NCBI GenBank assembly: GCA_900549015.1
Contig: URMH01000001.1
Coordinates: forward strand, 87,775 to 151,774
Direction of reading: 5' to 3'
From: an uncultured Blautia sp.
GTDB lineage: Bacteria > Bacillota > Clostridia > Lachnospirales > Lachnospiraceae
Length of the DNA stretch: 64,000 bases
In this document: one piece after another, positions 594-62,067 of the stretch
Position numbering within the stretch: position 1 is the stretch's first letter
How the letters are laid out: each line of letters begins with the position of its first letter
The notes under the pieces: model-generated
Databases searched by the model: none
What the model saw: only the letters and a program-made list of their open reading frames with translations
Told to the model about the DNA's origin: nothing
Position numbers and translations under genes: made by a program

Positions 594-829
594 TGAAATT
601 CATAGCCAGGAAACCTGTTGTAAAGACGAGGGTTTACAAGAGATACGGTCTTGTATGCGTAGAATATAAGCCCTGCTACTGTCCGAGGTGCCAGAATATA
701 TTAAATGCCGGACCGAACTATCAACCGAAATACTGTAGCGAGTGTGGCCAGAAAATTGATTTTTCAGAAGTAAAGTGGGAAGAAGAAAGAATTCTTGAAC
801 ATGCAGAAAGGAGTTTGGCCAATGAATAA
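590..829 (+). CDS. zinc-ribbon protein
   Basis: Two CxxC pairs (CPRC...CSEC); RBS GAGAAGGTGG upstream of ATGATG. Confidence 0.4.
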   Translation: MMKFIARKPVVKTRVYKRYGLVCVEYKPCYCPRCQNILNAGPNYQPKYCSECGQKIDFSEVKWEEERILEHAERSLANE

Positions 830-1835
830 GAGCGGTATTGAATGGTGTGATCACACATGGAACCCAATCACCGGTTGTCGGCATGGCTGTTCTTACTGCT
901 ACGCCGACAAGATGTCACTCCGTTTTTGCGGAAACATGAAACGAAATATGCTCCAGACAGGGCAATATCGAATAGAGGGAGATCTGTTTGTTCTGGATGA
1001 GCCGTTCATGAATGAAGATGGAAAGCCTGTCATATATCCATTTGGATTTGAACCGACATTGCACAGATACAGATACGATACACTGGACAAGCTGAAACAG
1101 GGGCAGAATGTGTTTGTTGGAGCAATGGCCGATATATTTGGCGAATGGGTGCCGGACAGTTGGATAGACGATATCCTTGGTATTTGCGAAAAACACCCTC
1201 AGCACAATTACTTGTTTCTTACCAAGAATCCGAAAAGGTACACCCAGTACGGTGTACCTTACGGAAAAGAAAATATGTGGTATGGAACAACTGTGACGAA
1301 TAGTGAGGACATGGAACGGATATACCAGCTTCCAACCCTGCTAAACACTTTCGCCAGTATAGAGCCATTGCTTGAAGATATAGACGAAAACATTTCTGCA
1401 CTGAAATATTTGAACTGGATCATTATCGGTGCCGAGACAGGACACAGGAAAGAGAAAGTGATTCCTGAGTTCGAATGGATTAAGAGAATTGTTGTAGAAG
1501 CTGATTACAACGAGATACCGGTATTTATGAAAGACAGCCTGATTCCGATAGTTGGCGAGAAGAATATGCGCAGGGATTATCCGAAGGAACTGCAGATTCG
1601 AAAAAGAAGCGAGAAAGTCAATAAAAAACTCAGTGGCAACTGTATGTTGTGCGGAAAGACAGAAGATAAAAACAAGATGGTTACCTTGACAGCAAGAGCG
1701 GTCAGGGGCGGCAAGGCGACATCGTTTGGCCATATGTGTCATTCCTGCTTTGCGAAATGGCTGACTAGTCACAATATACCGGTGCCGGACCTGGAAAATA
1801 AAAAGGAGATTGAAGATGGCAAAGAGAAGCTGTAG
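822..1835 (+). CDS. phage Gp37/Gp68-family (DUF5131) protein with radical-SAM-like CX3CX2C motif and C-terminal zinc ribbon
   Basis: N-terminus SGIEWCDHTWNPITGCRHGCSYCYA matches the Gp37/Gp68 signature; RBS GAAAGGAG 7 nt before ATG 822; C-terminal CMLC...CHSC. Confidence 0.6.
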   Translation: MNKSGIEWCDHTWNPITGCRHGCSYCYADKMSLRFCGNMKRNMLQTGQYRIEGDLFVLDEPFMNEDGKPVIYPFGFEPTLHRYRYDTLDKLKQGQNVFVGAMADIFGEWVPDSWIDDILGICEKHPQHNYLFLTKNPKRYTQYGVPYGKENMWYGTTVTNSEDMERIYQLPTLLNTFASIEPLLEDIDENISALKYLNWIIIGAETGHRKEKVIPEFEWIKRIVVEADYNEIPVFMKDSLIPIVGEKNMRRDYPKELQIRKRSEKVNKKLSGNCMLCGKTEDKNKMVTLTARAVRGGKATSFGHMCHSCFAKWLTSHNIPVPDLENKKEIEDGKEKL

Positions 1836-4365: not shown

Positions 4366-4589
4366 TGAAAGTATATAAAGCAGTGCATGAGAGAGAAAAC
4401 AAGTGCAAGGAATTGCACAAAGAGATGAATATGAATGTAGGCCCGACCAGACTGGTCCAGCCGGATTTTTACCTGTTGGTCGATGTGGATGACCTGCAGA
4501 AACAGATGAATGCTTTGGAGAACGAACTTCACCGAATGAAAAGAGTGGAAGCAAGGAGAAAATGGAGATATGTTCATAAAAGAAGATGA
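4356..4589 (+). CDS. hypothetical coiled-coil protein
   Basis: RBS GAGGTG before ATGATG; overlaps the upstream stop. Confidence 0.35.
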   Translation: MWMMKVYKAVHERENKCKELHKEMNMNVGPTRLVQPDFYLLVDVDDLQKQMNALENELHRMKRVEARRKWRYVHKRR

Positions 4590-5616
4590 TTTGAAATTGA
4601 ATGAGTGGCAGTTTTCTCAAAGAAAATTTCTTCCGTATGAGATAAAAACCAAACTTGCTGAAACAAGAATTCGTGAATGGTATGACAACTGGAATGGACA
4701 AGTATATCTAAGTTATTCGGGAGGGCTTGATAGTACAGCTCTGCTTCATATGATCCGCAAAACTGTCGGAAAAGAAGTACCAGCAGTGTTCTCGAATACT
4801 GGTTTGGAATTTCCTGAGATTGTGAGATTTGCCAGAAAAGCCAGTGGAGAGTTTTTGGAAATTTATCCGCAGAGAAAAGACGGTAGTCGAGCTACATTCA
4901 AATGGGTTGTCGAAACTTATGGATTTCCTATTACATCAAAGGAGAACGCCGCAAGAATCAGAAAACTCAGACACGGAAATCTTTGTAACAGGTATAGAAA
5001 TTATCTTTTAAATGGAGATGAGCGAGGAAAATTCGGAGTACTTCCAAAGAAATGGCATTACCTCTTAGAGACTAAGTTTGATACCAGTGAGAAGTGTTGT
5101 GACATCATGAAAAAGAATCCGTTTTCAAAATACGGCAAAGAAACAGGACGCGTTCCATACGTAGGTACAACACAGGACGAAGGCTTTATGCGCGCACGTT
5201 TATATGCTCATACTGGCTGCAATGTGTATGACGGCAAAACGATTAAAAGTCAGCCACTCGGACCATGGAACAGACAGGATGTTCTCAGATACATTGTGGA
5301 AAATGATGTGGAAATATGTTCAATTTATGGAGATATACGGAAATCATCAAGCGGGTTATATTACACTACAGGAGAACAGAGAACTGGTTGCATGTTCTGT
5401 GCATTCGGAGCACATATGGAGGAATGCCCGAATAGATTTCAAAGAATGGCGAAAACACATCCGAAACATTGGAAAATCTGTATGAATCTTGAAAACAATG
5501 GAGTTAGATATCAAGATGCATTATTAGAATGTAAAATCGAAACTGAAACGTGGGAACAAATGGGACAGATGAGCATAGAAGATTATCTGAAAGGGAAGAT
5601 TCATGAAACGGCATGA
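4570..5616 (+). CDS. PAPS-reductase-family PP-loop ATP pyrophosphatase (DndC/IbrA-like) with C-terminal Cys cluster
   Basis: PP-loop YLSYSGGLDSTALLHM..VFSNTGLEFPE matches the PAPS-reductase family; C-terminal CC..CMFCAFG..C cysteines. Confidence 0.6.
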   Translation: MFIKEDDLKLNEWQFSQRKFLPYEIKTKLAETRIREWYDNWNGQVYLSYSGGLDSTALLHMIRKTVGKEVPAVFSNTGLEFPEIVRFARKASGEFLEIYPQRKDGSRATFKWVVETYGFPITSKENAARIRKLRHGNLCNRYRNYLLNGDERGKFGVLPKKWHYLLETKFDTSEKCCDIMKKNPFSKYGKETGRVPYVGTTQDEGFMRARLYAHTGCNVYDGKTIKSQPLGPWNRQDVLRYIVENDVEICSIYGDIRKSSSGLYYTTGEQRTGCMFCAFGAHMEECPNRFQRMAKTHPKHWKICMNLENNGVRYQDALLECKIETETWEQMGQMSIEDYLKGKIHETA

Positions 5617-8820: not shown

Positions 8821-9033
8821 ATGTACAGCAAATGCCAGAAGTGCGGAAAGAAACTGACGGATCCCGAAAGCATCAAAAGGGGATATGGACCGGAATGTTG
8901 GAACAGCCTGACTGCACATTATTACCGAAACCCTGTTGACTGGGAAAACTACAGAGTACCTGGGCAAATGAACATTGAGGATTTTTTGGATATGGGAGGT
9001 GGGGACAATGGCGATAAGAAAGATATGCCCTGA
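8821..9033 (+). CDS. zinc-ribbon protein
   Basis: CQKCGKK...C; RBS GAGAGGAAG. Confidence 0.35.
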   Translation: MYSKCQKCGKKLTDPESIKRGYGPECWNSLTAHYYRNPVDWENYRVPGQMNIEDFLDMGGGDNGDKKDMP

Positions 9034-9238
9034 ATGCGGGCAACAGTACGGCACCAGACCAGCAGTGTCGAGAAAGGATAGGAAAACAGAAATATGTCCT
9101 GACTGTGGAACAAAGCAGGCACTTGACACTGTGAGGGATTTGTTGGGACCGGAAATGACCGATCAGCAATGGGAAGGATATAAAAGCGGATTTTTAAAAA
9201 GGTCGAGGGAGGGACAGCATGGACAGAACACTTTATAA
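9008..9238 (+). CDS. zinc-ribbon protein
   Basis: CPECG...CPDCG; RBS GGAGGTGGGG. Confidence 0.35.
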   Translation: MAIRKICPECGQQYGTRPAVSRKDRKTEICPDCGTKQALDTVRDLLGPEMTDQQWEGYKSGFLKRSREGQHGQNTL

Positions 9239-9449
9239 TGCCAGCGGGTGTAAGGATAAGACCGCTCATGATGCGATTTGTTCTGCATCAAAACCGCAGA
9301 CACAGGTTTTCAGATCTGACTGGACGCGGAGAGACAACGAGGCAGATATGTTCGTAAAGATGGTGAAACGTCTGGCAAAAGGATTTAATTTTAAACTTTG
9401 CGACAGAATTCGATTTGAGGATCCGGAAACAGGAAAGAAATATTTGTGA
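9219..9449 (+). CDS. hypothetical protein
   Basis: RBS GAGGGAGGG before ATG. Confidence 0.35.
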   Translation: MDRTLYNASGCKDKTAHDAICSASKPQTQVFRSDWTRRDNEADMFVKMVKRLAKGFNFKLCDRIRFEDPETGKKYL

Positions 9450-9457
9450 GGTATGGC

Positions 9458-10030
9458 ATGGACACAGAGAAAAAAGTACAATTCGTAGCACTGACAAAAG
9501 AGGAAATTGATGCAATGATTCAGCAGGCTGCCCTTGCCGGCGCACAGGTTGCGTCTGATGCAATGATGGTAGGGCAGAGAAAAAGCGAGAAGGAGAAGAT
9601 TGATCGTCGTTTGCATAATACTGATTTACTCCTTAGAAATTACAGAACTTTAAAGGCGAGCTACGAAAATGCCGTCTACAAGTCCAAGGAAGGGGAGGTT
9701 ACAGAGGTGCTGGAAGACATCATGACCATGAAAGATGATAAGGTCATAGTGGAGAGCATCAAAACTTCGGCCAAAAGAACCGCTATCATGGTACAGCATA
9801 TTGACAAAATGCTTGATGTATACCGTATCTATTGTAGCAAATTATCGGAAAAAGATAAGAGACGCTATAAGATTATTAAAGCCCTTTACATATCAAAGAC
9901 GCCAATGACAATTGCAGAAATTTCAAAAAAATTTTCGGTCAGCAAGGTCACTGTTTACGAAGATATCAAAATTGCGAAAGAGCGCTTATCTTCGCTGTTT
10001 TTCGGAATTGATGGTCTGAAGTTTTTTTAA
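9458..10030 (+). CDS. sigma-70 region-4-like phage late transcriptional regulator (ArpU/RinA-like)
   Basis: C-terminal HTH RRYKIIKALYISKTPMTIAEISKKFSVSKVTVYEDIKIAKERL resembles sigma region 4; last gene of the early block, terminator follows. Confidence 0.45.
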   Translation: MDTEKKVQFVALTKEEIDAMIQQAALAGAQVASDAMMVGQRKSEKEKIDRRLHNTDLLLRNYRTLKASYENAVYKSKEGEVTEVLEDIMTMKDDKVIVESIKTSAKRTAIMVQHIDKMLDVYRIYCSKLSEKDKRRYKIIKALYISKTPMTIAEISKKFSVSKVTVYEDIKIAKERLSSLFFGIDGLKFF

Positions 10031-10064
10031 TAAAATCAGAATAACGGAATCTGTTAACTTAACA

Positions 10065-10093
10065 TTGACTTAATAACGAAAATGGTGTATGAT
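10065..10093 (+). promoter_or_regulatory. near-consensus sigma-70-type promoter, TTGACT-17-TATGAT
   Basis: Hexamers at 10065-10070 and 10088-10093 with exact 17-nt spacing. Confidence 0.5.
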
Positions 10094-10123
10094 ATGCGAG
10101 TAAAATTTTAATCAAAAGCCATG

Positions 10124-10153
10124 AGCCACTGGGAAAAAACCAGTGGCTTTTTT
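10124..10153 (+). terminator. intrinsic terminator hairpin (9-bp stem AGCCACTGG/CCAGTGGCT, 7-nt loop, T-run)
   Basis: Perfect stem followed by TTTTT. Confidence 0.6.
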
Positions 10154-10227
10154 AATGCAATCTTGGGAGGGAGGAAAGGATAGAAAGACGGGAATGCTCC
10201 TTTAAAATATTTTAGAGGAGATTACGC

Positions 10228-11607
10228 ATGAATGGAGTAACAATATTATTTGTATATGCAGTTATCATGATCCTGGCAACAGTGATCCTGACAAAGAAAG
10301 AAAAAAATGTGGAACGCTTCTGTGTTGGAAGCCGTTCTGAAAACTGGCTGATGTCGGCTCTCAGCATTGCGGCAACGTGGATCTGGGCTCCGGCATTATT
10401 TGTATCAACTGAGAAAGCATATTCTACCGGCTGGGTTGGCCTGTTCTGGTTTCTGGTCCCGAATGCCCTTTGTCTGGTGATATTCATTCCCTTTGCAAAG
10501 AAAATCCGGAAGGAAATGCCAGAGGGAATGACACTGTCTGGTTACATGAAAGAAAAATACCAATCCGATGGAGTGAAAAGGGTTTACCTGTTTCAGCTGA
10601 TCGGACTGTCTGTTCTGTCAACAGGAGTTCAGCTTCTTGCGGGAAGCCAGATCCTTAGTACAGTAACAGGAATTTCGTTCAAAACCATGACTATTTTGCT
10701 CGCTTGTATAGCAATTTCCTATTCTCTGTTCTCTGGAATTAAAGCATCTATGCTTACAGATGCTATTCAAATGGTATTCATGCTTGTTGCATGTAGCCTA
10801 TTTGTAATATTCGGAGTAAGAAATACAGGAACACAGGGCATTATACAGGGCCTGAGTGGTATATCAGGAGACTGTACAACGCTCTTTTCTGGAAAAGGAG
10901 TAGAGATTTTCTTAGCCTTTGGGCTTCCGACAACGATAGGACTTTTATCCGGGCCGTTTGGAGATCAGAGCTTCTGGCAGAGGGCATTTGCAGTAAAAAA
11001 AGAGAAGCTGGGAAGAGCGTTTCTTCTTGGAGCAGTTCTTTTTGCGGTGGTTCCACTGTCAATGGGAATTCTTGGATTTATGGGAGCCGGTGCAGGATAT
11101 CAGGCACAGAACCTTGGAATCATCAATTTTGAATTGATCCGCCACTTTTTCCCGTCCTGGGCAGTATTGCCGTTCCTTTTCATGATTGTTTCCGGTTTGC
11201 TGTCTACAGTGGATAGCAACTTGTGCGCAGTATCTTCGCTTACGACAGATATTGCAGGAGGAAAAGACATCAGGAAGACCAGAGCTGCAATGGCAGTGCT
11301 TCTGATCGCTGGCATTCTGATTGCAAATATCCCGGGAATTACAGTGACACATCTGTTTTTGTTCTATGGCACACTGAGGGCGTCAACATTACTTCCAACA
11401 GTCATGACACTGAAAGGGGTAAGACTGAATGCAAAAGGGATTATCACAGGTGTGGTTGCTGCACTGGCTGTAGGGCTTCCTGTATTCGCCTACGGCAGCG
11501 TTTTGAATAGTGGACCATATAAAACACTGGGAAGCTTGCTGACAGTCCTGTTGAGCGGACTTATCGCCTTGGCTGCTTCCGGAAAGGAGAGACACTATGC
11601 TCGGTAG
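10228..11607 (+). CDS. sodium:solute symporter (SSS) family transporter
   Basis: 459 aa with ~12-13 hydrophobic helices; SSS-like segment GIKASMLTDAIQMVFML; RBS GAGGAG; its stop overlaps the start of the next gene. Confidence 0.5.
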   Translation: MNGVTILFVYAVIMILATVILTKKEKNVERFCVGSRSENWLMSALSIAATWIWAPALFVSTEKAYSTGWVGLFWFLVPNALCLVIFIPFAKKIRKEMPEGMTLSGYMKEKYQSDGVKRVYLFQLIGLSVLSTGVQLLAGSQILSTVTGISFKTMTILLACIAISYSLFSGIKASMLTDAIQMVFMLVACSLFVIFGVRNTGTQGIIQGLSGISGDCTTLFSGKGVEIFLAFGLPTTIGLLSGPFGDQSFWQRAFAVKKEKLGRAFLLGAVLFAVVPLSMGILGFMGAGAGYQAQNLGIINFELIRHFFPSWAVLPFLFMIVSGLLSTVDSNLCAVSSLTTDIAGGKDIRKTRAAMAVLLIAGILIANIPGITVTHLFLFYGTLRASTLLPTVMTLKGVRLNAKGIITGVVAALAVGLPVFAYGSVLNSGPYKTLGSLLTVLLSGLIALAASGKERHYAR

Positions 11608-12373
11608 AAAACAATCCGTTCGAAATAATGAAGACTGGAAGAATGCGCTTGATCACATTGAAGAGACGGTGCCAAAGAAAGAACTGGATTCCCTTGTGAA
11701 AAAGACAGTGAAAGACATCAAAGAGAAATGCAAGGGGAAAAAGGCAGCCTATGCATGGAGTGCGGGAAAAGACTCACTGGTACTTGGAGAGATATGCGAG
11801 AAAGCCGGCATTGATCAGAGCGTCCTTGTAAGGTGTAATCTGGAATATCCGGCATTTATTGCATGGATAGAGCAGAATAAACCTTCTGGCCTTGAGATTA
11901 TCAATACCGGACAGGACATGGAATGGCTGAAAAAGCATCCGGATATGTTATTTCCGGATAAAAGCAATAAGGCAGCGCAGTGGTTCCATATCGTACAGCA
12001 CAGGGGACAGGCGCGATATTATAAAGAACATCAGCTGGAAATACTCCTGCTCGGACGCAGAAAGGCAGACGGCAATTATGTTGGAAAAGATAATATCTAC
12101 ACTAATTCAGCCGGAATCACCAGATACAGCCCTCTTGCAGAGTGGAGGCACGAAGATATCCTTGCATACATTCACTATTATGATGTGAAGCTCCCGCCTA
12201 TATATGACTGGGAGAAGGGATATTTATGCGGTACACATCCATGGCCTGCCAGACAGTACATGGAGACAGAACAGCAGGGTTGGAAAGAAGTTTACGACAT
12301 TGATAAGACCATAGTTGAAAATGCGGCACAGCATTTCGAGGGAGCCAGAGATTTTTTAAAAGCTATCAAATAG
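11597..12373 (+). CDS. PAPS-reductase-like PP-loop protein (DndC/IbrA-like), copy 1
   Basis: PP-loop AYAWSAGKDSLVL; start overlaps the transporter stop (ATGCTCGGTAG). Confidence 0.55.
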   Translation: MLGRKQSVRNNEDWKNALDHIEETVPKKELDSLVKKTVKDIKEKCKGKKAAYAWSAGKDSLVLGEICEKAGIDQSVLVRCNLEYPAFIAWIEQNKPSGLEIINTGQDMEWLKKHPDMLFPDKSNKAAQWFHIVQHRGQARYYKEHQLEILLLGRRKADGNYVGKDNIYTNSAGITRYSPLAEWRHEDILAYIHYYDVKLPPIYDWEKGYLCGTHPWPARQYMETEQQGWKEVYDIDKTIVENAAQHFEGARDFLKAIK

Positions 12374-12418
12374 CCGGTTGCAGCCGGAGGCCATTGCCCT
12401 TCAGAAATGGAGGACAAA

Positions 12419-13072
12419 ATGAAGGTTATTAAAAAGAGACTGGATGATCTTAAACATCCAGAGAAAAATGTCAGAATTCATTCTGAACAGCAGATCAGGG
12501 AACTGAAACGCTCCCTTGAGAAGTTTGGACAGACCAGAGCCCTTGTTGTGGATGAAAATAATGTGATTCTGATCGGGAACGGCTTATATGAGGCTATGGT
12601 GAGCCTTGGTTATCAGGAGGCATCCGTATATGTAAAAACGGAACTTTCTGAAAATGATAAAAAGAAGCTTATGATAGCCGACAATAAGACTTATGCTCTT
12701 GGAATTGATAATCTGGATACACTGAATGAGTTTCTTGAGGAATTGCAGGGCGATCTGGACATTCCGGGATACGATGAAGAAATATTACAGCAGATGGTCG
12801 CGGATGCAGACGAAGTAACTGAGAAAATCTCTGAATATGGAACATTGGACGAATCAGAGATCCAGAAGATAAAGGAAGCCAATGAGAAACGGGAGCAGAA
12901 AGCGGCAGCAGCGGAAATATCTGACAATAATTCAGAGAACAGTTCGGAAAATCCGAACACTTCAGACAACCAATCGTCGGAAAGGCAGAATACCACTGAA
13001 ACAGAACCGGAAATAACAGAAACCCGGAAGTTTGTTATCTGCCCGAACTGCGGTGAAAAGATATGGCTGTAA
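12419..13072 (+). CDS. ParB-like nuclease-domain protein, copy 1
   Basis: N-terminus HPEKNVRIHSEQQIRELKRSLEKFGQTRALVV..VILIGNGLYEAMVSLG matches the ParB N-terminal domain pattern; acidic Ser/Asn-rich low-complexity tail plus C-terminal CPNCG. Confidence 0.5.
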   Translation: MKVIKKRLDDLKHPEKNVRIHSEQQIRELKRSLEKFGQTRALVVDENNVILIGNGLYEAMVSLGYQEASVYVKTELSENDKKKLMIADNKTYALGIDNLDTLNEFLEELQGDLDIPGYDEEILQQMVADADEVTEKISEYGTLDESEIQKIKEANEKREQKAAAAEISDNNSENSSENPNTSDNQSSERQNTTETEPEITETRKFVICPNCGEKIWL

Positions 13073-14208
13073 AACGTTGTGAAGCCAATATCGATGTTGT
13101 GAAAGCTGCAGAGATCCGGATAAAAAACGTGTTCGGAAACGGGCTACCAGTGTTCTTTTCTTTCAGTGGGGGAAAGGACAGCTTATGCGTGGCGCAGCTG
13201 ATGGTCAATCTGGCCAATCGAGGTGAGATTGACATGAAACAACTTACAGTGCAGTTTATAGATGAAGAAGCAATCTTTCCTTGCATGGAGGATATGACAA
13301 AGAAGTGGCGGCGCATCTTTATGATGATGGGAGCAAAGTTTGAATGGTATTGCGTAGAAGTAAAACATTTTAACTGCTTCAATGAACTGTCAAATGATGA
13401 AACATTTATCTGCTGGGATTCCGCAAAACAAGACGTATGGGTAAGACAGCCGCCTTCCTTTGCGATAAGGAACCATAAACTGTTACGTCCAAGGATTGAT
13501 GCTTATCAGGATTTCCTGCCAAGGACAACCGTATCAGGAATTACAATGGTCGGTATCCGTACAGCGGAATCTGTACAGAGGCTTCAGAATATTGCGTCTA
13601 TGACAAAAGCAGGAAACAAAATGACTGCAAAGAAGCAGGTATTTCCCATTTATGATTGGACGGACAATGATGTCTGGCTCTTCCTTCTGAGAAATCATGT
13701 AGATATCCCGGAGATATATTTGTTCCTCTGGCAGTCAGGATCCAGTAAAAGGCAGATGCGAGTATCCCAGTTCTTTTCTGTTGATACAGCAAGAAGCCTT
13801 GTGAAGATGAATGAGTATTATCCAGATCTTATGGAACGGATCATCAGAAGAGAACCGAACGCTTATCTGGCTGCCCTGTATTGGGACAGCGAGATGTTCG
13901 GCAGAAGTTCCAGAAAAAGGAAAGAGGCGGAAGAGGGACAGGAGCAGAGAGATTATCGGCAGGAGCTGATACATCTTTTTAATCACATGGACGTTTTTTT
14001 CGACACTCCGCATAAAAGGCATGTGGCAGAACGATACCGTAATTTCTTTATGGCGGTATCAGCAATAGCTACATCGGCCGATTGCAAGCACATATACGAA
14101 GGACTGATATCCGGAGATCCCAAAATGAGGGCATTCCGGGCACTGTACCAGAGAGTATATGGACGTTATATCAACGATGCGAAGAAAGGAGAACACCATG
14201 GACAATAA
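13063..14208 (+). CDS. PAPS-reductase-like PP-loop protein (IbrA-like, with C-terminal extension), copy 2
   Basis: PP-loop VFFSFSGGKDSLCVAQLM; 381 aa; ATG overlaps the upstream gene end. Confidence 0.55.
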   Translation: MAVKRCEANIDVVKAAEIRIKNVFGNGLPVFFSFSGGKDSLCVAQLMVNLANRGEIDMKQLTVQFIDEEAIFPCMEDMTKKWRRIFMMMGAKFEWYCVEVKHFNCFNELSNDETFICWDSAKQDVWVRQPPSFAIRNHKLLRPRIDAYQDFLPRTTVSGITMVGIRTAESVQRLQNIASMTKAGNKMTAKKQVFPIYDWTDNDVWLFLLRNHVDIPEIYLFLWQSGSSKRQMRVSQFFSVDTARSLVKMNEYYPDLMERIIRREPNAYLAALYWDSEMFGRSSRKRKEAEEGQEQRDYRQELIHLFNHMDVFFDTPHKRHVAERYRNFFMAVSAIATSADCKHIYEGLISGDPKMRAFRALYQRVYGRYINDAKKGEHHGQ

Positions 14209-14758
14209 GCTGTCAGCACCATCTAGGACCATGCATTGGGTAGATAGGAATAAGATCAAACCAAATGATTACAACCCGAACAAAGTTTCGAGACAAAATC
14301 TGGAACTGCTCACACAGTCTATATTTACAAACGGATGGACGCTGCCAATTGTGGTAAGACCAGACGGTACTATTATTGATGGATTCCACAGATGGACGGT
14401 TGCAGGACCTGACTGGAAGTACGTTCCTCCTTCGGAAGAAGATGATCGCAGGACATTATACGAACGTCTTGAGGGAAAAGTGCTTGTAGTGATTGTTGAT
14501 CATAAAGATAAAGCGAAAAATATTTACGGTACCGTTACCCATAATAGGGCAAGAGGTACCCATTTGCTCGAACCTATGAAGAAAATCGTTAAAGAACTCA
14601 TGGACGAAGGCAAAACAGTTGAAGAAATCGGAAAACAGCTTGGAATGAGACCGGAGGAGATCTTCCGATTGTCAGATTTTTCAAAAGAAGACTTCTTGAA
14701 GATGATGACAAAAGGGGTGACGGGCTATTCAAAAGCTGAATTTATTACAAAAATTTAA
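14198..14758 (+). CDS. ParB-like nuclease-domain protein (IbrB/DndB-like, DGxHR motif), copy 2
   Basis: IKPNDYNPNKVSRQNLELLTQSIFTNGWTLPIVVRPDGTIIDGFHRW; RBS AAAGGAG before ATG 14198. Confidence 0.55.
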   Translation: MDNKLSAPSRTMHWVDRNKIKPNDYNPNKVSRQNLELLTQSIFTNGWTLPIVVRPDGTIIDGFHRWTVAGPDWKYVPPSEEDDRRTLYERLEGKVLVVIVDHKDKAKNIYGTVTHNRARGTHLLEPMKKIVKELMDEGKTVEEIGKQLGMRPEEIFRLSDFSKEDFLKMMTKGVTGYSKAEFITKI

Positions 14759-14789
14759 TATTGTTCTACGACATATAGAACAGAAAGCG

Positions 14790-14817
14790 GGGAGAGGGAG
14801 TGCAACCTCTCCCTTTT
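14790..14817 (+). terminator. intrinsic terminator (GGGAGAGG / CCTCTCCC stem, TTTTG)
   Basis: 8-bp perfect stem with 8-nt loop, then T-run; sits between the ParB-like gene and terS. Confidence 0.55.
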
Positions 14818-14857
14818 GCATATGCCGAAATAAGATGATGGAGGGGAGGGGTGTCCA

Positions 14858-15658
14858 TTGGCAAGGGCAAGAAGTCCCAACAGCATTGAAGCTGAGGAAA
14901 TGTATAAGAACGGGATGAAACTTGTTGACATTGCCAAGAAGTTGGACGTCCCGGCCAGCACAGTTCGGCGGTGGAAATCAACACAGAATTGGGACGGAAA
15001 GACAAAAGGAAAGAAAAACGAACGTTCGCAAAAGAAAAAAGCGAACGCTCGCCATAAAGGTGGACAGCCTGGGAACAGAAATGCAGTTGGAAATAAGGGC
15101 GGTCCACTGAAACCGGGAGATAAGATTGCAGAGAAACACGGAGCATATTCCTCTGTATATTGGGATGTCCTTGATGAGTCTGAAAAAGATATGATCGAAG
15201 ATATCCCGATGGATGAAGAAATGCTTCTGATCGAACAGATTCAGCTCTTTGCTGTGAGGGAAAGAAGGATCATGATTGCAATCAATAAATACCGGAACAT
15301 GAAAGGTGAAGTATCCCTGTATGGATTTAACCGAAGCGAAAGCAAAAGGACATTCAAAACAGAAGAGGACAAGCAGCTCTATGAAGAACGCATAGAGAAG
15401 AAAATATCTGCTGAAGAACGTCTGCCGGGAGATATGTATAACATGCAAACCACGATGGAAAACAAGGACAATATGATCGCCAGACTTGAAAAAGAGCTGT
15501 CAACTGTACAGTCAAAGAAGACCAAGGCTATTGAAGCACTTGCGAAGCTGAGACTTGAAAAGCAGAAGATTGCCGGAGAAAGCAAGGGCAATGAGGTTGT
15601 TCGTGCATGGGCCGAAGCTGTGGTAAAAGCAAGGGAGGGAGAGAATAAAGATGGATGA
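14858..15658 (+). CDS. terS: terminase small subunit (HTH-containing)
   Basis: N-terminal HTH MYKNGMKLVDIAKKLDVPASTVRRWKS; basic and coiled-coil rest; lies immediately upstream of terL with overlap; TTG start after GGAGGGGAGGGG. Confidence 0.65.
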   Translation: MARARSPNSIEAEEMYKNGMKLVDIAKKLDVPASTVRRWKSTQNWDGKTKGKKNERSQKKKANARHKGGQPGNRNAVGNKGGPLKPGDKIAEKHGAYSSVYWDVLDESEKDMIEDIPMDEEMLLIEQIQLFAVRERRIMIAINKYRNMKGEVSLYGFNRSESKRTFKTEEDKQLYEERIEKKISAEERLPGDMYNMQTTMENKDNMIARLEKELSTVQSKKTKAIEALAKLRLEKQKIAGESKGNEVVRAWAEAVVKAREGENKDG

Positions 15659-17117
15659 TATACAGTTCTCTGAATTCCTTGATGAAAGTATACCGCTGTG
15701 GCGAAATGATCCGGTAATGTTCTTCCGGGAGGTGCTCAATTTTGAACCTGATGAATGGCAGGCGGAAGCTGCAAGAGATTTGGCGGCAAACCCGAAGGTC
15801 AGTATTAAATCTGGACAGGGTGTAGGAAAGACTGGTCTTGAGGCAGCAGTATTTCTTTGGTTCATAACCTGTTTCCCATATCCAAGAATCGTTGCGACAG
15901 CACCAACCAAACAGCAGTTGCACGATGTCCTCTGGTCTGAGATTTCTAAGTGGATGAGCAAGTCTGAGTTGCTCTCTATGCTTCTGAAATGGACAAAGAC
16001 CTATGTTTATATGGTTGGCAATGAAAAGCGTTGGTTTGGTGTTGCTAGGACTGCTACAAAGCCAGAGAATATGCAAGGCTTCCATGAAGATAATATGCTT
16101 TTTATCGTTGATGAAGCTTCCGGCGTTGCGGATCCGATCATGGAGGCTATCCTTGGTACCTTATCCGGATCAAATAATAAACTTCTTCTGTGTGGAAACC
16201 CAACACGAACATCTGGAACATTCTATGATTCGCATACCAGAGACAGGGCACTGTATAAATGCCACACTGTATCATCTGCAGACAGCAGTAGAACAAACAA
16301 AGAAAATATTGATTCGCTCATAAGGAAGTATGGATGGGATTCAAACGTAGTCCGTGTCCGTGTCCGTGGAGAATTTCCGAATCAGGAAGATGATGTATTT
16401 ATTCCGTTAAGCCTGATCGAGCAGTGCAGCAATAAATTGCTAGAACTTGATGATTCAGCTGGGATGCAGTTTGTATCACTGGGGGTAGATGTGGCCCGTT
16501 TCGGAGATGATGAAACGATCATATATCGTAATTATCATGGTCATTGCAAAATAGTCCGAAACAGGCGAGGACAGAACCTGATGGCCACTGTAGGTGACAT
16601 CGTAAAGGAATTCAAAAAGATATACAGGGAGTATTCAAAGTATGAAGGCAAGGTGTATGTACAGATTGATGACACCGGTCTTGGTGGAGGTGTTACTGAC
16701 CGTCTGAAGGAAGTTCGGAAAGAACAGAAGCTGTATAAGATGCAGATTATTCCGATAAATGCAGCAGAAAAGATTGAGACCGATACGGCAGCAGGTAAAG
16801 ATGCAGCTGAAAAGTACAATAACCTGACCACCGCCATGTGGGCTAGCATGCGAGATCTTCTGGATAACAAGCAAATTGTAATTGAAGACGATGAGCAGAC
16901 GATCGGCCAGCTTTCCTCCAGAAAATATACAATGACGAGTAACGGAAAGCTTGAAATCGAATCAAAAAAAGAAATGAAGAAAAGGGGGCTGGATTCCCCC
17001 GACCGAGCAGATGCTCTTGCTTTGGCATTGTATCTCGGAAAGATCAAGAAACACACAGGCACAGCACCTGGAGTCAAAGAATTACAGGAGCTGACCAAAG
17101 ACAATTACTGGGGCTGA
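15651..17117 (+). CDS. terL: terminase large subunit
   Basis: Walker A GQGVGKTG, Walker B FIVDEASG, C-terminal nuclease-region acidic residues; 488 aa. Confidence 0.85.
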   Translation: MDDIQFSEFLDESIPLWRNDPVMFFREVLNFEPDEWQAEAARDLAANPKVSIKSGQGVGKTGLEAAVFLWFITCFPYPRIVATAPTKQQLHDVLWSEISKWMSKSELLSMLLKWTKTYVYMVGNEKRWFGVARTATKPENMQGFHEDNMLFIVDEASGVADPIMEAILGTLSGSNNKLLLCGNPTRTSGTFYDSHTRDRALYKCHTVSSADSSRTNKENIDSLIRKYGWDSNVVRVRVRGEFPNQEDDVFIPLSLIEQCSNKLLELDDSAGMQFVSLGVDVARFGDDETIIYRNYHGHCKIVRNRRGQNLMATVGDIVKEFKKIYREYSKYEGKVYVQIDDTGLGGGVTDRLKEVRKEQKLYKMQIIPINAAEKIETDTAAGKDAAEKYNNLTTAMWASMRDLLDNKQIVIEDDEQTIGQLSSRKYTMTSNGKLEIESKKEMKKRGLDSPDRADALALALYLGKIKKHTGTAPGVKELQELTKDNYWG

Positions 17118-41716: not shown

Positions 41717-43072
41717 ATGAAGACATATTGCCGAAGAATGGATATTTCTGGCGAAAATTTCATCAGGAAATACATAGCTGCATTTATATATGACAAGCTA
41801 GAAAATGGTAATATGCCGAGTATTTTTGCTTACTATGGAAGCATAAGTAAAAATGAGGCTAGAAGGCGGTTGGAGAATTCGCCGGAATTTGTAGCATCTG
41901 TGATCGATCAGATTGCGTATGAAATGTCGTGGCATTTGAAGACCAGAACTGTAAGGGAACATATCTATATGGTAGTTCCGGAAGAGAAACTTGTGAAAAA
42001 TGTTGATATAGTAGATGGAATGAGCGGAAAAATTAGAACGCTAGGACTTGAAAAGATGATCATGCAGCTATATGAGGTGTTGGCCAAGGAAGCGGCAGAT
42101 GAGTTGTGGACGGCAAAAGTCGGACTTTTTCAAGTTGCATCAATACCTGGAAGAGGACAAGCTTACGGCAAAAAATACATCGAACGATGGATGTCGCGTG
42201 ATCCGGAAGGAACTAAATATTGCGTTCAGTCAGATATAAAAAAATGCTATCCCTCTATGTCACATGATAAAATATTAGAATTTCTTCGAAGAGATTTAGG
42301 AAAGTCAGATATGTTGTTGTACTTGTTTGAGACTTTGATTGGATTGTATTCTGAAGCAAAGGTGCAGAATAAAGAGAAAGATTGCAAACATGGGATTTTT
42401 ATAGGCTCTCCGGTGTCGAAAGATCTGTGCAATTATTATCTATCTTATTTGTACCATTATTGCACAAATGAACTTTATGAAATGAAGACCAGACGAGGGA
42501 AGACAACAAGAAAAAGATTGATTTATCATATCATGATTCAGATGGATGATATCATTCTTTTTGGCTCTAATAAGAAAGATCTTCATAAGGCAATGCTGCT
42601 TGTTATTGAATTCGTAAAATCTACACTCTGTCTAAAGATCAAAGATTCCTGGTCGTTATTTCGTACAGGTTATGTTGACAGAAACGGAAAACAAAAAGGA
42701 AGGGATTTAGACTATATGGGGCTTGTGTTCCATGGACAGAATTTAATCAAAAGATGTTATTCCGGAAAAACAGTGACAATACGGAATGTGTCAACAAGGA
42801 TAAGAGCATCAATATTCCTAAAGGCTCGCAGGAAAATTCATAGATTTGCGAAAAAAATAAAGAACAAAAAGATTATAGGTAGTAAATTCGCCATGAGTAC
42901 CATAGCATATAACGGTTGGTTTGTAACAACAGACTCCTTTCTTGTGAGGGTTGCAGAATGTTGGGATCAACTTATTTCGATGGCTAAAAATATAATCAGC
43001 CGTTATGCGAAACAGAAAAGCTATGCTATGGAAAAATATTATAAGAAGTGGAGGAAATTGAATTATGCATAA
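41717..43072 (+). CDS. DGR reverse transcriptase
   Basis: RT motif 2 QSDIKKCYPSMSHDKILEFL, motif-4-like GIFIGSPVSKDLCNYYL, and motif 5 region HIMIQMDDIILFG with QMDD in place of YxDD; RBS AGAGGA. Confidence 0.75.
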   Translation: MKTYCRRMDISGENFIRKYIAAFIYDKLENGNMPSIFAYYGSISKNEARRRLENSPEFVASVIDQIAYEMSWHLKTRTVREHIYMVVPEEKLVKNVDIVDGMSGKIRTLGLEKMIMQLYEVLAKEAADELWTAKVGLFQVASIPGRGQAYGKKYIERWMSRDPEGTKYCVQSDIKKCYPSMSHDKILEFLRRDLGKSDMLLYLFETLIGLYSEAKVQNKEKDCKHGIFIGSPVSKDLCNYYLSYLYHYCTNELYEMKTRRGKTTRKRLIYHIMIQMDDIILFGSNKKDLHKAMLLVIEFVKSTLCLKIKDSWSLFRTGYVDRNGKQKGRDLDYMGLVFHGQNLIKRCYSGKTVTIRNVSTRIRASIFLKARRKIHRFAKKIKNKKIIGSKFAMSTIAYNGWFVTTDSFLVRVAECWDQLISMAKNIISRYAKQKSYAMEKYYKKWRKLNYA

Positions 43073-47699: not shown

Positions 47700-48626
47700 T
47701 TAAGCTACATGTTCTGCATTTGCATTCTCACGAAGCTGTTTCATCATGTGAAGTCTGCATGTTTTGAACTCATCACCATAAAGTCCAAGTCTGTTTGTGA
47801 GGATATTATACATTAAAGTGACTTTTTTCTTTGCTGTGTATCCGTTCATGGTTCTGAATACGACTTTATCATCAGATTCGATGGACCATGCAGAGAGTGC
47901 TAAACAAAACTGTACATATGCTTTGATCTTTCCTGCATGAAGAGTGCTGTTAAAAAGTCTGAATTCGACAGTTCCTTTCTGGAAGAAGCTATGAAGATTC
48001 AATGCGTGGTATCTTGTAGAGTTATAATGCTGATGATTGATTCCACCACAGTAGCCATCGTTTGCTGGGCTGTACCAAATTTTCTCAACGGAATCGGTTG
48101 TGATGTTTTTGTCTTTTTTCATGGTATCAAGTAAATTCTTGCAAACTGGCTGACACCAACGATATTTTCTGTCACCTACTGCAAGCGCATCGTAAATGAT
48201 TTCCTGTCTGCTATACATGAAATTTACCAGACGGCGAAGAGAAGTTGCGGTATGGTTCGCTCCGTCTACATGAATATGGATTCCGCATGAACTGTGAGGA
48301 ACTCCACCGATTTCTCTGAATTTACGGATGATTGCCTGCAGTGTATCAAGATCTTCGTATTTAAGAACCGGTGTTACGAATTCAACTCTGTATTCGTCCA
48401 TGTTCTCGGTTCCAACTTTACGAATTGGATGAATTGAGCTGTCTCGCATTACCTTCCATTTTCTTCCCTGTGAATCCTGAATGGTTCTTGTCTGATAGCA
48501 GGTGTGATCTGGTCTGGAAGCTGTAGTTCCGATGATTTCTGCAACTGCATCAGCAGCCATCTTTCTTGAAATACCTGTAAATTCAACCTCAACACCGTAG
48601 TTCTGTTTCTTTAAAAGTTCTGACAT
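47700..48626 (-). CDS. putative amidoligase (Amidoligase_2, glutamine-synthetase/GCS2-like fold)
   Basis: YGVEVEFTGISRK...RKWKVMRDSS...VEFVTPVLKYEDL...SSCGIHIHVD matches the Amidoligase_2 family core; RBS AGGAGGAAAA. Confidence 0.7.
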   Translation of the reverse strand: MSELLKKQNYGVEVEFTGISRKMAADAVAEIIGTTASRPDHTCYQTRTIQDSQGRKWKVMRDSSIHPIRKVGTENMDEYRVEFVTPVLKYEDLDTLQAIIRKFREIGGVPHSSCGIHIHVDGANHTATSLRRLVNFMYSRQEIIYDALAVGDRKYRWCQPVCKNLLDTMKKDKNITTDSVEKIWYSPANDGYCGGINHQHYNSTRYHALNLHSFFQKGTVEFRLFNSTLHAGKIKAYVQFCLALSAWSIESDDKVVFRTMNGYTAKKKVTLMYNILTNRLGLYGDEFKTCRLHMMKQLRENANAEHVA

Positions 48627-49533: not shown

Positions 49534-51111
49534 TTAACGTTTTCTTCTTTTGGGAAGTGAAGCTTTAAAAAATCGGATTAGAGGATAGTGGATAGTCATA
49601 GGCATTGTAGGACTCAAATCAGTATCTCCTTTAAATGAAAACCGAGGGTTAGAGCCATAATTTCCAATAACACCAATTTCATATAAATCTTTAAGAATAT
49701 GTGGAGTTTTTCTGTTTTTAGCTAAGGTTTCAACTTCTTCAAAAAAGTCCCTATTACTATCAATGTTATTTTGGAAATCTTTTATTTCAAAAGGCAAGGC
49801 TAAACTGGTTAATGATTTCTTGATTCCTTCAACTTCTGCATCAGAATACTTTGCAGTTAATACTTCTTCAAATTCTATCCAAGACTCTTCCGCATATGTT
49901 TTTCGTACTGAATCAAATATTTCTTGATCGAAAAATGATTTTTGCCCGTGTTGTTTTTGTATTATAGAAAAAAGACGAATGATGTCACGTGGTTTATACC
50001 ATGTTTGATCTAATAAGTAATTTTCTATAGGAAGTTTGCTTTCCCCTATTGTAGGAACAAAATAGGTATTCCAAATATCAGTAGATTCTTGCAATCCAGC
50101 TAATTTTTCGCTGTAATGAATTCTTTTTTCTAACATCTTTAGTAGGGGATGATTATGGATATTTCCGCCTTTCTGCTCCCATGAAATAGTTACACCAAAA
50201 TCTAAAATGACTTTATTAATCTCCATTCCTTTAGAAATGATATTTTTGTAAACTTCATTTCTGATTGTTGCGATCAAATGAACATTATAGTTTTGAGTAC
50301 GATTAATTTCGTTAAGAGATTCAATTGCAAAAATTAAATCTCTAATTAGCGTGATATCACGTTGGTAATCTTTATTTTTCTTTAGAGATAATTCAAGTTC
50401 ATCTACTAATATGTATATAGTATTTTCAACTGGTTTCAAATTAGTATATAAAAATATAATTTGTTTGGCGACAGAGGAAAAAGATGCAGTAGTTTTAGAT
50501 GAATCTGTCCATTCAAAGTCAAAGTTAATTTTACCAAAATCGCTAAGATTAAGTTCCAGATTTCCACGTTTCATTTTAGGTAGAATCTTTTTTATTTGGT
50601 CAGCAGCATTGTTTTCTCCGTATACAGCTTTGATTAAAGAGCATAACTTTATCCAAGTATCATCAGTTCGATCAAAAACTCCATATTCAGTCTGAGATAA
50701 TCTATTTATGATAACTTTAATTAAATAAACTTGCCACGCAAGTGTACAATTCAAAGAAATATCTGTAGGAATATCGCTTTCAATCACTTCTTCAAAACTG
50801 TTTGAAGGTACTGCAGTTCTTTTTAATTGATTTCTTTGTTCTGTATCTACATCTTTTTTAAATCGAATAAATTCTGTGAAATTAGTTTCTGGATTTTCGA
50901 GAATTTTACTTTCTATATATTTGAGTAACATTGTTTTTCCAGTACCTTTATTTCCGAATATATAATAGGTTGTTCCATCAAGTATTTTATCAATAGGTAC
51001 ATTTGGAAATTCAAAAAATAGTCCTTTGCAAGTATCTTGACCGTATTCAAGGAATTCATTGTATCCATCAATTTTTCCCAAATACATATCTTTTATCATT
51101 AATGGTGCCAT
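49534..51111 (-). CDS. P-loop NTPase (AAA-like) of unknown function; candidate defence/abortive-infection effector
   Basis: Walker A YIFGNKGTGKT, Walker B IYILVDELE; 525 aa; AT-rich codon usage unlike the flanking DNA. Confidence 0.5.
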   Translation of the reverse strand: MAPLMIKDMYLGKIDGYNEFLEYGQDTCKGLFFEFPNVPIDKILDGTTYYIFGNKGTGKTMLLKYIESKILENPETNFTEFIRFKKDVDTEQRNQLKRTAVPSNSFEEVIESDIPTDISLNCTLAWQVYLIKVIINRLSQTEYGVFDRTDDTWIKLCSLIKAVYGENNAADQIKKILPKMKRGNLELNLSDFGKINFDFEWTDSSKTTASFSSVAKQIIFLYTNLKPVENTIYILVDELELSLKKNKDYQRDITLIRDLIFAIESLNEINRTQNYNVHLIATIRNEVYKNIISKGMEINKVILDFGVTISWEQKGGNIHNHPLLKMLEKRIHYSEKLAGLQESTDIWNTYFVPTIGESKLPIENYLLDQTWYKPRDIIRLFSIIQKQHGQKSFFDQEIFDSVRKTYAEESWIEFEEVLTAKYSDAEVEGIKKSLTSLALPFEIKDFQNNIDSNRDFFEEVETLAKNRKTPHILKDLYEIGVIGNYGSNPRFSFKGDTDLSPTMPMTIHYPLIRFFKASLPKRRKR

Positions 51112-53157: not shown

Positions 53158-53522
53158 TGAGTGGATTAGATAAAGATAGAAAACGCAATCAGACAGTTTG
53201 TTTCCGGATGACACCTGAGGAACGCAGAGAATTAGAAGCGCGCATTATAGTGAGTGGACTGCCGAAAGGAAACTATTTCATTCAGTCTGTACTCCATCAG
53301 GAAGTAAAGATTGCGGTCGGTAAATATCAAAGTGATCGGTTAAGCCTTGAAATACGGCGGCTGTGGGAGCGTTTGGATTATCTGGAAACAGAGGATTTAT
53401 ATGAGGTACTGGCAGACTGCCGGGCACTAATGAAACAGGTAATTGAAATCACTGGTAATGGTTGTTTAGCAGCTTGGACAGCAAGTGATTTTAAAACAGA
53501 GATATTGGAAGATGAAAAATAA
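53157..53522 (+). CDS. MobC-like relaxosome accessory protein
   Basis: QTVCFRMTPEERRELEARIIVSGLPKGNYFIQSVL resembles the MobC family. Confidence 0.4.
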   Translation: MSGLDKDRKRNQTVCFRMTPEERRELEARIIVSGLPKGNYFIQSVLHQEVKIAVGKYQSDRLSLEIRRLWERLDYLETEDLYEVLADCRALMKQVIEITGNGCLAAWTASDFKTEILEDEK

Positions 53523-53627
53523 AAGCCTTTAAGTATCGGCAAACACCTAAAGGCGGAGACTTGGTAGAAAATCCAAATCAATCACTGAGGTTATTCTACC
53601 AAAGTCTCCACCATCTTTCAACAGAAA

Positions 53628-54641: not shown

Positions 54642-54711
54642 TATTGGGAAGATGGCAAGATTACCATCTCTTTAAGAACAGGGAATCTTGCTATCTTGAA
54701 AGGAGCTATGG

Positions 54712-54945
54712 ATGAAAAATGTACAAATACCACAGGAATTATTTATGAAACTGCTCCGATATCATCTGCTTGATGATGATAGTTGTACTGAAGATGTGAA
54801 AAAAGGATTGGAGCAGAAAATGAAAACTATGGTGGAACGTGAATTATATACGAAATCAAAAACCGCTCCAACAGAGGAAGAACGGGAAAAAGCCCGACAG
54901 GAGTATCTGGACAGGCGGGGAATACAGGCTGACTTTCGATGGTAA
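54712..54945 (+). CDS. hypothetical small protein
   Basis: ORF with weak signals only. Confidence 0.25.
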   Translation: MKNVQIPQELFMKLLRYHLLDDDSCTEDVKKGLEQKMKTMVERELYTKSKTAPTEEEREKARQEYLDRRGIQADFRW

Positions 54946-55190: not shown

Positions 55191-55213
55191 GAGAATGTGA
55201 GGTGAAAAATAGG

Positions 55214-57396: not shown

Positions 57397-57400
57397 ATTT

Positions 57401-62064: not shown

Positions 62065-62067
62065 TTC

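Follow-up and report, generated by a model that had tools for sequence, protein, structure and literature searches.

The 64,000-nt stretch of uncultured Blautia sp. contig URMH01000001.1 analysed here (the window; coordinates count from its first letter) carries at 10228-14758 a cassette of five co-directional open reading frames (ORFs) on the + strand. It couples a solute transporter to two PP-loop ATP pyrophosphatases of the phosphoadenosine phosphosulfate (PAPS) reductase family and to two ParB-like proteins, upstream of the terminase genes of a phage. The genes are named, in order, transporter, PAPS1, ParB1, PAPS2 and ParB2, and the last two code for proteins of the IbrA and IbrB families, respectively. 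The IbrA/IbrB-type module was already known, though uncharacterised, while its transporter-coupled form is new. The cassette is read here as a late-expressed system for DNA-directed modification by adenylation chemistry with an imported precursor, a tentative reading that falls somewhat short of an even chance and draws on guilt by association and on family chemistry. An earlier note made from the sequence had placed the five genes between the late regulator, here a helix-turn-helix (HTH) gene, and terS. The ORF reading confirms this placement, and profile searches and ORF coordinates agree with the domain calls, motifs and gene overlaps that it gave.

Loci related to the cassette were collected through the transporter from IMG/VR (80 loci, 50-100% identity) and from GTDB species-representative bacterial genomes (80 loci), giving 160 loci. 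A further 80 loci of the type found in Faecalibacterium phage Taranis were added, for 240 loci overall. At nearly all of the 160 loci the transporter gene is followed by PAPS1 and/or by ParB1-IbrA-IbrB, and where the IMG/VR contigs go on the order is almost always PAPS1-ParB1-PAPS2-ParB2-TerS-TerL. This arrangement, with its gene order repeated in nearly all 160 independent loci, is far beyond chance. PAPS1 alone is missing in a minority of the 80 IMG/VR loci (L062, L063, L066, L068, L074, L076 and L080). The hosts of the GTDB loci include Lachnospiraceae, Oscillospiraceae, C. difficile, Anaerotruncus and Flavonifractor, among others. The module is found on two unrelated backbones, one with the HTH and TerL proteins of the window type and the other with RinA and the TerS/TerL of Taranis type; it moves as a unit between phage backbones. 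Gene content, protein families, intact PP-loop and ParB motifs, operon architecture and strict co-occurrence are all directly observed. Across the 240 loci three extra ORFs within the module were left unmatched: an amidotransferase, an unannotated 234-aa ORF and a probably spurious ORF.

The physical coupling of the genes to a transporter, proposed in the earlier note, is borne out more strongly than the sequence alone could tell, by its occurrence at nearly all 160 loci together with the stop/start overlap. Homologous prophages, in which a transporter was to be looked for, do carry it: it is present within the module in hundreds of related phages, and the transporter cluster has more than 3,800 member sequences. 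In INPHARED the transporter was found in no cultured phage, the sole match being an unannotated faecal contig.

PAPS2 matches the IbrA family model phrog_2302 (E 2e-98) and ParB2 the IbrB family model phrog_2159 (E 3e-71), the same models that recognise IbrA (E 1e-82) and IbrB (E 5e-91) of E. coli phage PhiR5_2. Alignments to the PhiR5_2 proteins are full-length, at 27% identity over 86% of the query for PAPS2 (tblastn E 5e-24) and at 34% identity for ParB2. The suggestion that this second pair is of IbrA/IbrB type is thus sustained by common PHROGs and by full-length alignment. The PP-loop domain of PAPS2 is followed by a long helical C-terminal extension; the C-terminal half of the protein matches phrog_15645 (E 8e-7), a model that also covers residues 193-394 of PhiR5_2 IbrA. 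DUF3440 (PF11922) is found in PhiR5_2 IbrA at E 5e-33 and was unreported for PAPS2 at E up to 0.01, where its only trace is the phrog_15645 match. Among 141 PAPS2 homologues the motif SFSGGKDS is at least 97% conserved and no cysteine reaches 97%, while in ParB2 the motifs NDYNPN, DGFHR and HNRARG are conserved at no less than 97% and a conserved HTH is found at the C-terminus. The end of PAPS2 (14208) overlaps the start of ParB2, in the overlapping co-directional ibrA-ibrB layout of PhiR5_2. PAPS2 is predicted to be the core catalytic component. Profile searches against solved structures gave remote family-level matches only, to FAD synthase, PAPS reductase, CysD and TtuA for the PP-loop proteins and to Spo0J, Noc and ParB for ParB1 and ParB2.

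The two pairs had been viewed as a tandem duplication, which the comparisons do not support. The alignable part of PAPS1 and PAPS2 is limited to the PP-loop core (hhalign probability 89.6%), and that of ParB1 and ParB2 to 48 columns (hhalign probability 43%); in both comparisons the two proteins match different PHROGs, and PAPS1 is missing from many otherwise intact modules. The two PP-loop and the two ParB-like proteins belong to different, distantly related subfamilies. The conserved unit is instead a triad of a ParB protein (phrog_620/723 type), IbrA and IbrB. It adjoins the terminase in Faecalibacterium phage Taranis and in Riemerella phage PJN03; in Arthrobacter phage Laroye (gp5-7) a methyltransferase and TerS come next, and in Mycobacterium phage Phlyer (gp1, gp4 and gp5) TerL does. 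In Streptococcus, Lactobacillus and Fusobacterium phages IbrA-IbrB has an SNF2-type helicase as its neighbour, in a Bacillus phage it lies between DNA methyltransferases, and E. coli phage PhiR5_2 has the pair alone.

The location of the triad directly 5' of terS/terL in phages of four phyla invites the idea of a packaging accessory, in which the ParB-like proteins would recognise or nick the pac/cos region together with terminase and IbrA would be an ATP-using cofactor. HNH proteins work with terminase in some cos phages. The idea is quite improbable: the window phage encodes a TerS of its own, the pair is found away from terminase in phages of Streptococcus, Lactobacillus, Fusobacterium, Flavobacterium and E. 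coli, and a PP-loop enzyme and a solute importer are without precedent in packaging. The arrangement in Phlyer speaks for it. In this cluster-B mycobacteriophage (L247, 1-5236) gp5 (IbrB) lies directly next to gp6, a TerL with an intein, and the annotation of that stretch lists no TerS, which raises the question of IbrB-type proteins acting in TerS-like DNA recognition.

ParB1 is of the ParB/Srx-fold type seen at the N-terminus of phage DNA methyltransferases. It had no match in the Pfam profile search, matches phrog_498 'DNA methyltransferase' (E 3e-27) only over positions 30-190 of 633 and the PADLOC model MTase_II (E 2.5e-12) only over positions 9-154 of 436, and its tblastn matches land on annotated DNA modification methylases. 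The likeness to methyltransferases is at the domain level only. ParB1 was also considered as a full ParB-domain methyltransferase and rejected, as no catalytic domain follows: an acidic linker and a CPxCG knuckle complete the protein. The protein features GNGL where ParB proteins have DGxHR. The C-terminal CPxCG knuckle, preceded by the acidic low-complexity linker, is present in 147 of 148 sequences; with its two cysteines it offers only half of a zinc site, pointing to a metal site formed between subunits or with a partner protein.

The alternative assignment of the cassette to a DndC/DndB type, also raised in the earlier note, is not supported. Dnd-type phosphorothioation by DndC-like and DndB-like proteins could be read from DndC models that PAPS2 matches weakly and locally (PADLOC E 4e-8, ~55 residues) and from the resemblance of DGFHR to DGQHR, yet the score against the DndC equivalog TIGR03183 is 22.7 bits, an order of magnitude under the cut-off of 290.4, and DGFHR belongs to the IbrB family. 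Neither PAPS1 nor PAPS2 has an invariant cysteine cluster, PADLOC gives no DndB match for ParB1 or ParB2, and a five-gene cassette leaves no gene for the desulfurase DndA, for DndD or for DndE. Phosphorothioation of this kind is very improbable. Auxiliary sulfur metabolism by a CysH-type PAPS reductase, or plasmid-style ParB partition, is hardly credible and has behind it the PHROG and GenBank names 'phosphoadenosine phosphosulfate reductase' and 'ParB-like partition protein'. Against the CysH models PAPS1 scores 22 bits (TIGR00434, cut-off 165), 22 bits (TIGR02057, cut-off 254) and 23 bits (NF002537, cut-off 154); no CysH model was listed for PAPS2, and the conserved catalytic C-terminal cysteine (ECGLH) is found in neither PP-loop family. 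ParB2 reaches 19.1 bits against the partition model TIGR00180 (cut-off 58.45), which ParB1 does not match. No ParA ORF is present, no centromere-like repeat array was found in 9000-16000, and the element carries an integrase. For the module as a whole PADLOC returned only weak local matches and no known anti-defence family at a meaningful score. On these scores and motifs, Dnd-type phosphorothioation, sulfur assimilation and partition are effectively excluded.

Adenylation is the standard chemistry of PP-loop enzymes such as TilS, QueC, GMP synthase and DndC. The PP-loop enzymes of the module look competent, and they look like neither reductases nor iron-sulfur (Fe-S) sulfurtransferases. That no reductase or Fe-S cysteines are conserved speaks against CysH-like reduction or DndC-like sulfur transfer and in favour of simple adenylation; the CRISPR-associated protein CasCysH was interpreted along the same lines (PMC8175902).

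PAPS1, of the phrog_424 type, has the PAPS-reductase fold and is a PP-loop ATP pyrophosphatase that is small and stands alone. It is translationally coupled to the transporter and is an optional component: ~19 of the 160 transporter loci lack it, and among the 80 Taranis-type loci it is found in 15, where it lies between the 333-aa protein and ParB1. Its motif AWSxGKDS is at least 97% conserved among 113 homologues. The most conserved cysteines are C67 (>97%), C80 (92%) and C211 (88%), which form neither a cluster pattern nor a C-terminal catalytic cysteine. The family is small, with 570 representatives of ~260 aa each among 1.84 billion, and the top 150 of these are stand-alone proteins with no obvious fusions. 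In one Lachnospiraceae metagenome-assembled genome (MAG; JAJQDT010000003.1, locus L173, 9152-9769) a class-II (N-terminal Cys) glutamine amidotransferase (PF13522, E 6e-13) separates PAPS1 from ParB1, with stop and start codons that overlap. Class-II glutamine amidotransferases are the classic ammonia-donor partners of PP-loop amidating synthetases of the AsnB/GuaA type. By this analogy the locus points to adenylation followed by attack of an amine or ammonia.

The transporter is assigned to the sodium:solute symporter (SSS) family, which has the LeuT fold, a placement that its profile scores allow at the family level only. It scores 70.1 bits against PF00474 (gathering cut-off 22.8), residues 31-406 covering profile positions 1-400 of 406. 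With 112.7 bits it stays under the superfamily cut-off of TIGR00813 (184), and it is under the equivalog cut-offs of PanF (81.7 bits vs 328) and PutP (49.8 bits vs 515). Among solved structures, profile comparison places DUR3 urea symporters (E 8e-24) and the CHT1 choline transporter (E 7e-19) nearest to it. As to cation-site residues in TM1 and TM8, the motif SGLLSTVDSNL, in which S322, G323, L324, S326, D329, S330 and L332 are invariant, aligns with the corresponding DUR3 helix in a sequence-level alignment. Across sequences 52-80% identical the transporter has ~100 invariant residues, mostly in helix cores, which indicates that the protein is under strong constraint. By analogy with DUR3, CHT1 and PanF the imported molecule may be an amine, amide or carboxylate that is small and polar.

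In Taranis and ~80 relatives the slot before ParB1 is filled by the 333-aa polytopic protein, which has 866 homologues and no Pfam or PHROG match. Sequence homology between this protein and the SSS protein was tried and rejected (BLASTP E 0.54, no hmmsearch match, hhalign probability 2-7%). The two are linked solely by structure search: the AlphaFold model of the 333-aa protein is confident (predicted local distance difference test score, pLDDT, 84; predicted template modelling score, pTM, 0.84) and DUR3 and CHT1 are among its best structural matches. An SSS-like transporter of LeuT fold, full or minimal, is therefore the constant of the module in Clostridia phages, and the minimal protein represents an undescribed transporter family.

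The tight coupling of the transporter to PAPS1 and the amidotransferase added in one locus would also suit a role away from DNA. An imported metabolite would be adenylated or amidated to a product that disturbs host defence signalling or metabolism, with the ParB-like proteins as regulators or NTPases. The best solved relatives of IbrA by profile, FAD synthases (E 4e-5), are small-molecule adenylyltransferases. This role has a low probability: IbrA plus one or two ParB proteins, the core that is widely conserved, is found without any transporter and in DNA-related contexts (terminase, methyltransferase, helicase), and no PADLOC or anti-defence family was matched at a meaningful score.

The 5' flank of the cassette bears on the time of its expression. 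Most loci conserve the HTH gene 5' of the transporter; on the Taranis-type backbone a RinA-like activator takes its place. The 197-nt gap between the HTH and transporter genes contains a promoter-like site and a terminator-like hairpin (Table 1). The hairpin has compensatory changes in L032 and L033, and different hairpins are found at equal offset in L057, L059 and L063; since it is retained or replaced at the same offset in relatives, the cassette looks like the first block of the late operon. The hairpin probably ends the early/middle transcript and the module probably opens the late operon. Its role may be simple termination of the early unit, or antitermination/attenuation for the late operon. 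A riboswitch 5' of the transporter that would name a ligand was considered and rejected, as Rfam scans of the whole window at the gathering threshold and of 9900-10400 at E up to 10 gave nothing credible.

This location is also the ground for the main rival to DNA modification, late-gene co-activation. IbrB, with an NTP-binding ParB fold and the conserved C-terminal HTH, would load near the start of the late operon and stimulate transcription together with IbrA, and the transporter and PAPS1 would tie the switch to an external metabolite. Homologues carry the label 'co-activator of prophage gene expression', and the module sits at the early/late boundary, beside an HTH or RinA-like activator and after the terminator-like hairpin. 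Such a role is considered unlikely. The module lies 3' of the hairpin and seems co-transcribed with terminase, so that its proteins would be made with the late genes and not earlier; a separate dedicated activator is already present; and co-activation leaves unexplained two conserved, apparently active ATP pyrophosphatases and the methyltransferase and helicase neighbours. The phenotype of IbrA/IbrB is said to be activation of prophage (eib) gene expression, and in the original E. coli work the label reportedly came from one indirect phenotype.

DNA modification could proceed as follows. The cassette is taken as one functional module, set at the start of a temperate Lachnospiraceae phage's late operon. 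ParB1 and IbrB would bring IbrA to DNA, analogous to the ParB domain fused to phage DNA methyltransferases, and IbrA would spend ATP adenylating a base carbonyl or a backbone phosphate on replicated phage DNA. A nucleophile would then displace AMP, leaving a covalent mark. In Clostridia gut phages the module has gained a dedicated Na+/H+-coupled LeuT-fold importer and usually also PAPS1 coupled to it, which would supply or pre-activate the small molecule destined for DNA late in infection, before packaging. The likely benefit would be protection from host restriction or another defence. We infer that DNA is the target, that the chemistry is adenylation and substitution, that the transporter supplies the precursor and that the benefit is anti-restriction. 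The full version, in which an exogenous small molecule or its PAPS1-made derivative is covalently attached to phage DNA by IbrA through TilS-like adenylation and substitution, with two ParB-fold proteins for targeting, is speculative and rather doubtful.

Several lines of evidence speak for modification of DNA. Co-occurrence, presence on two backbones and the stop/start overlap make the transporter part of the module, and a transporter also fills the slot in Taranis-like phages. The triad is found in DNA-related contexts of distant phages, and ParB1 resembles the methyltransferase N-terminal domain, which points in the same direction. Precedents exist for proteins of PAPS-reductase or ParB fold in DNA modification, namely DndC/DndB, DpdB, BrxP and CasCysH (PMC12839542, PMC8175902).

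Other observations weigh against this reading. Two rare loci depart from the conserved arrangement, one with TerS directly after the transporter and no triad (L036) and one, from a GTDB genome, with the transporter and PAPS1 without the triad (L238). Most IbrAB-carrying phages lack the transporter, so IbrAB needs none in general. DUR3, CHT1 and PanF are equally remote from the transporter and name no substrate for it. The amidotransferase clue comes from one of 240 loci, and no relatives were found in IMG/VR. The structure prediction for IbrA, made with 28 homologues at least 71% identical, reached only pLDDT 52 and pTM 0.36. The position beside terminase fits a packaging or late-transcription role too. 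The sole functional label on IbrA/IbrB is that of co-activator. The literature search found annotations only, with no mechanistic study of IbrA/IbrB or of phage modules of PAPS reductase and ParB, and a modified base demonstrated for no IbrA/IbrB-carrying phage.

Phages of at least five bacterial phyla carry IbrA/IbrB-type pairs, for which 'PAPS reductase' and 'ParB partition protein' are the routine annotations; the results argue against scoring these genes as auxiliary metabolic genes of sulfur metabolism. In thousands of human-gut Clostridia prophages the pair has its own solute importer. Recruitment of an importer implies that the chemistry consumes a small molecule worth importing, which offers an experimental way in, and the module is directly testable since cultures exist of Taranis and of several carrier strains, among them the Lachnospiraceae isolates MGYG-HGUT-00092 and 00137, Acetatifactor muris DSM 23669 and Anaerotruncus colihominis DSM 17241. 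If the product is a DNA mark, the module would be a new phage epigenetic or hypermodification pathway with a bearing on restriction evasion, gut phage-host range and virome sequencing artefacts. If the imported precursor is real as well, this would be a new class of DNA hypermodification dependent on an environmental precursor and the first mechanism for IbrA/IbrB.

The genes of the cassette are tightly packed (Table 1). The transporter stop and the PAPS1 start overlap by 11 nt, with a GGAGAG ribosome-binding site ahead of the PAPS1 start, and ParB1 and PAPS2 overlap by 10 nt. The start of ParB2 likely needs correcting from the opening of its ORF at 14159 to the ATG at 14198. This codon stands behind the ribosome-binding site AAAGGAGA, leaves an 11-nt overlap with PAPS2 and agrees with the starts of homologues in the IbrB-family alignment. 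ParB2 matches PF02195 at E 1e-4, under the gathering score, and has the motif IIDGFHRW. The portal gene lies further downstream, after terS and terL.

Table 1. Features of the window, in order of position
Feature	Position	Strand	Evidence and remarks
DUF5131 (phage Gp37/Gp68 family) protein	795-1835	+	E 3e-42
Third PAPS-reductase-family PP-loop gene, early region	4570-5616	+	PF01507 E 3e-20
HTH protein, presumed late-gene regulator	9446-10030	+	PF08279 HTH_11 E 8e-9
Promoter-like site TTGACT-17-TATGAT (putative)	10065-10093	+	consensus scan alone, 10/12 matches
Terminator-like hairpin and T-run	10123-10149	+	fold energy -17.9 kcal/mol; ~80 nt 5' of transporter start
SSS-family transporter	10228-11607	+	459 aa; PF00474 E 2e-19; phrog_20720 E 7e-237
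PAPS1 (PP-loop protein 1)	11597-12373	+	258 aa; PF01507 E 2e-12; motif SAGKDS
ParB1 (ParB-like 1)	12407-13072	+	221 aa; phrog_620 'ParB-like' E 2e-48
PAPS2 (PP-loop protein 2)	13063-14208	+	381 aa; PF01507 E 7e-11; motif SGGKDS
ParB2 (ParB-like 2)	14159-14758 (ORF; likely start 14198)	+	199 aa (ORF); phrog_2159 E 3e-71
terS	14858-15658	+	PF10668 E 5e-12
terL	15651-17117	+	53% identity to annotated phage terminases
Reverse transcriptase	41717-43072	+	PF00078
Amidoligase_2	47700-48626	-	PF12224 E 5e-60
525-aa protein	49534-51111	-	phrog_13260
Integrase	52093-53157		
Mob_Pre relaxase	55145-56608		
ArsP permease	60691-61704		
SBF/ACR3-like transporter	62068-63117		

The window carries genes for a beta clamp, a resolvase, a reverse transcriptase of the type found in diversity-generating retroelements, a lysin and an integrase. 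Homologues nearest to the transporter, at 97-99% identity, are from Lachnospiraceae isolates, Blautia wexlerae and a 'Ruminococcus sp.' MAG. The integrase and the occurrence of transporter homologues in Lachnospiraceae genomes indicate a temperate phage of human-gut Lachnospiraceae. The third PP-loop gene, in the early region, had been counted with the system as a paralog. It is a genuine family member and it is not part of the module: it is found in one of 80 related loci (L026), which makes it an independent accessory gene. The translation of this gene shows a CC...CxxC pattern like that of APS reductase, DndC and BrxP, and the protein matches the PADLOC models BrxP (E 4e-15) and SspD (E 1e-8). 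Homologues occur in 35 phage records, mostly of Clostridium phages, with Clostridium perfringens, C. difficile, Ruminococcus, Vibrio and Enterobacter represented.

Other features of the window stand apart from the cassette. A DUF5131 gene lies near its left end. The reverse transcriptase gene in the tail-fibre region suggests a diversity-generating retroelement, as in Faecalibacterium phages. After the lysin, a low-GC stretch holds a moron-like Amidoligase_2 gene, beside which the 525-aa protein is encoded. In 52093-64000 the integrase is followed, at a GC content of 0.33-0.36, by a primase/helicase-like ATPase, the relaxase and the ArsP and SBF/ACR3-like transporters. The right third of the window is probably a second mobilisable island or host DNA, outside the phage.

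Known systems resemble the module in part. Dnd, with the PP-loop/Fe-S enzyme DndC and the ParB-like DndB, and BrxP of BREX type 4 act in a DNA-modification setting (PMC12839542). Their pairing of a PP-loop enzyme of PAPS-reductase fold with a protein of the ParB superfamily is also that of the module, which differs in having no Fe-S cysteines, desulfurase, DndD or DndE, and in model scores far under cut-off; BrxP/DndC-like cysteines are found only in the unrelated early gene 4570-5616. CasCysH of type IV-B CRISPR systems has the PAPS-reductase fold and an SGGxDS PP-motif and lacks the catalytic cysteine; it was proposed to AMPylate a substrate rather than to reduce sulfate, a function that is unproven (PMC8175902). 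Its context is a CRISPR ribonucleoprotein, with neither ParB partners nor a transporter. In Dpd 7-deazaguanine DNA modification DpdA works with the ParB-like ATPase DpdB (PMC12839542). Dpd and the phage ParB-methyltransferase fusions share with the module a ParB-fold protein that assists or targets a DNA-modifying enzyme, and the domain of ParB1 is the one fused in the latter. The enzyme partner in the module is a PP-loop ATPase, not a transglycosylase or a methyltransferase. The likeness of the transporter to DUR3 (urea/polyamine) and CHT1 (choline) of the SSS/SLC5 family is at family level, and PanF scores similarly.

Closer counterparts are found among phages. In the cultured Faecalibacterium phage FP_Taranis (gp35-gp38) the order is late activator, membrane protein, ParB1 type, IbrA, IbrB and terminase, and its IbrA is 43% identical to PAPS2. 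Taranis differs in having the 333-aa membrane protein, no PAPS1 and other terminase and activator families; its published description is silent on these module genes. Laroye, Phlyer and PJN03 have the same three families in the same terminase-side position, all lacking the transporter and PAPS1; Laroye has the added methyltransferase, and in PJN03 the gene order is reversed, IbrB preceding IbrA. PhiR5_2 IbrA/IbrB share with PAPS2/ParB2 the PHROGs, the PP-loop, DGFHR and HNRARG motifs and the overlapping gene order. While the PhiR5_2 pair stands alone, the pair described here is part of a larger set at the start of the late operon, with a transporter, another PP-loop enzyme and another ParB protein.

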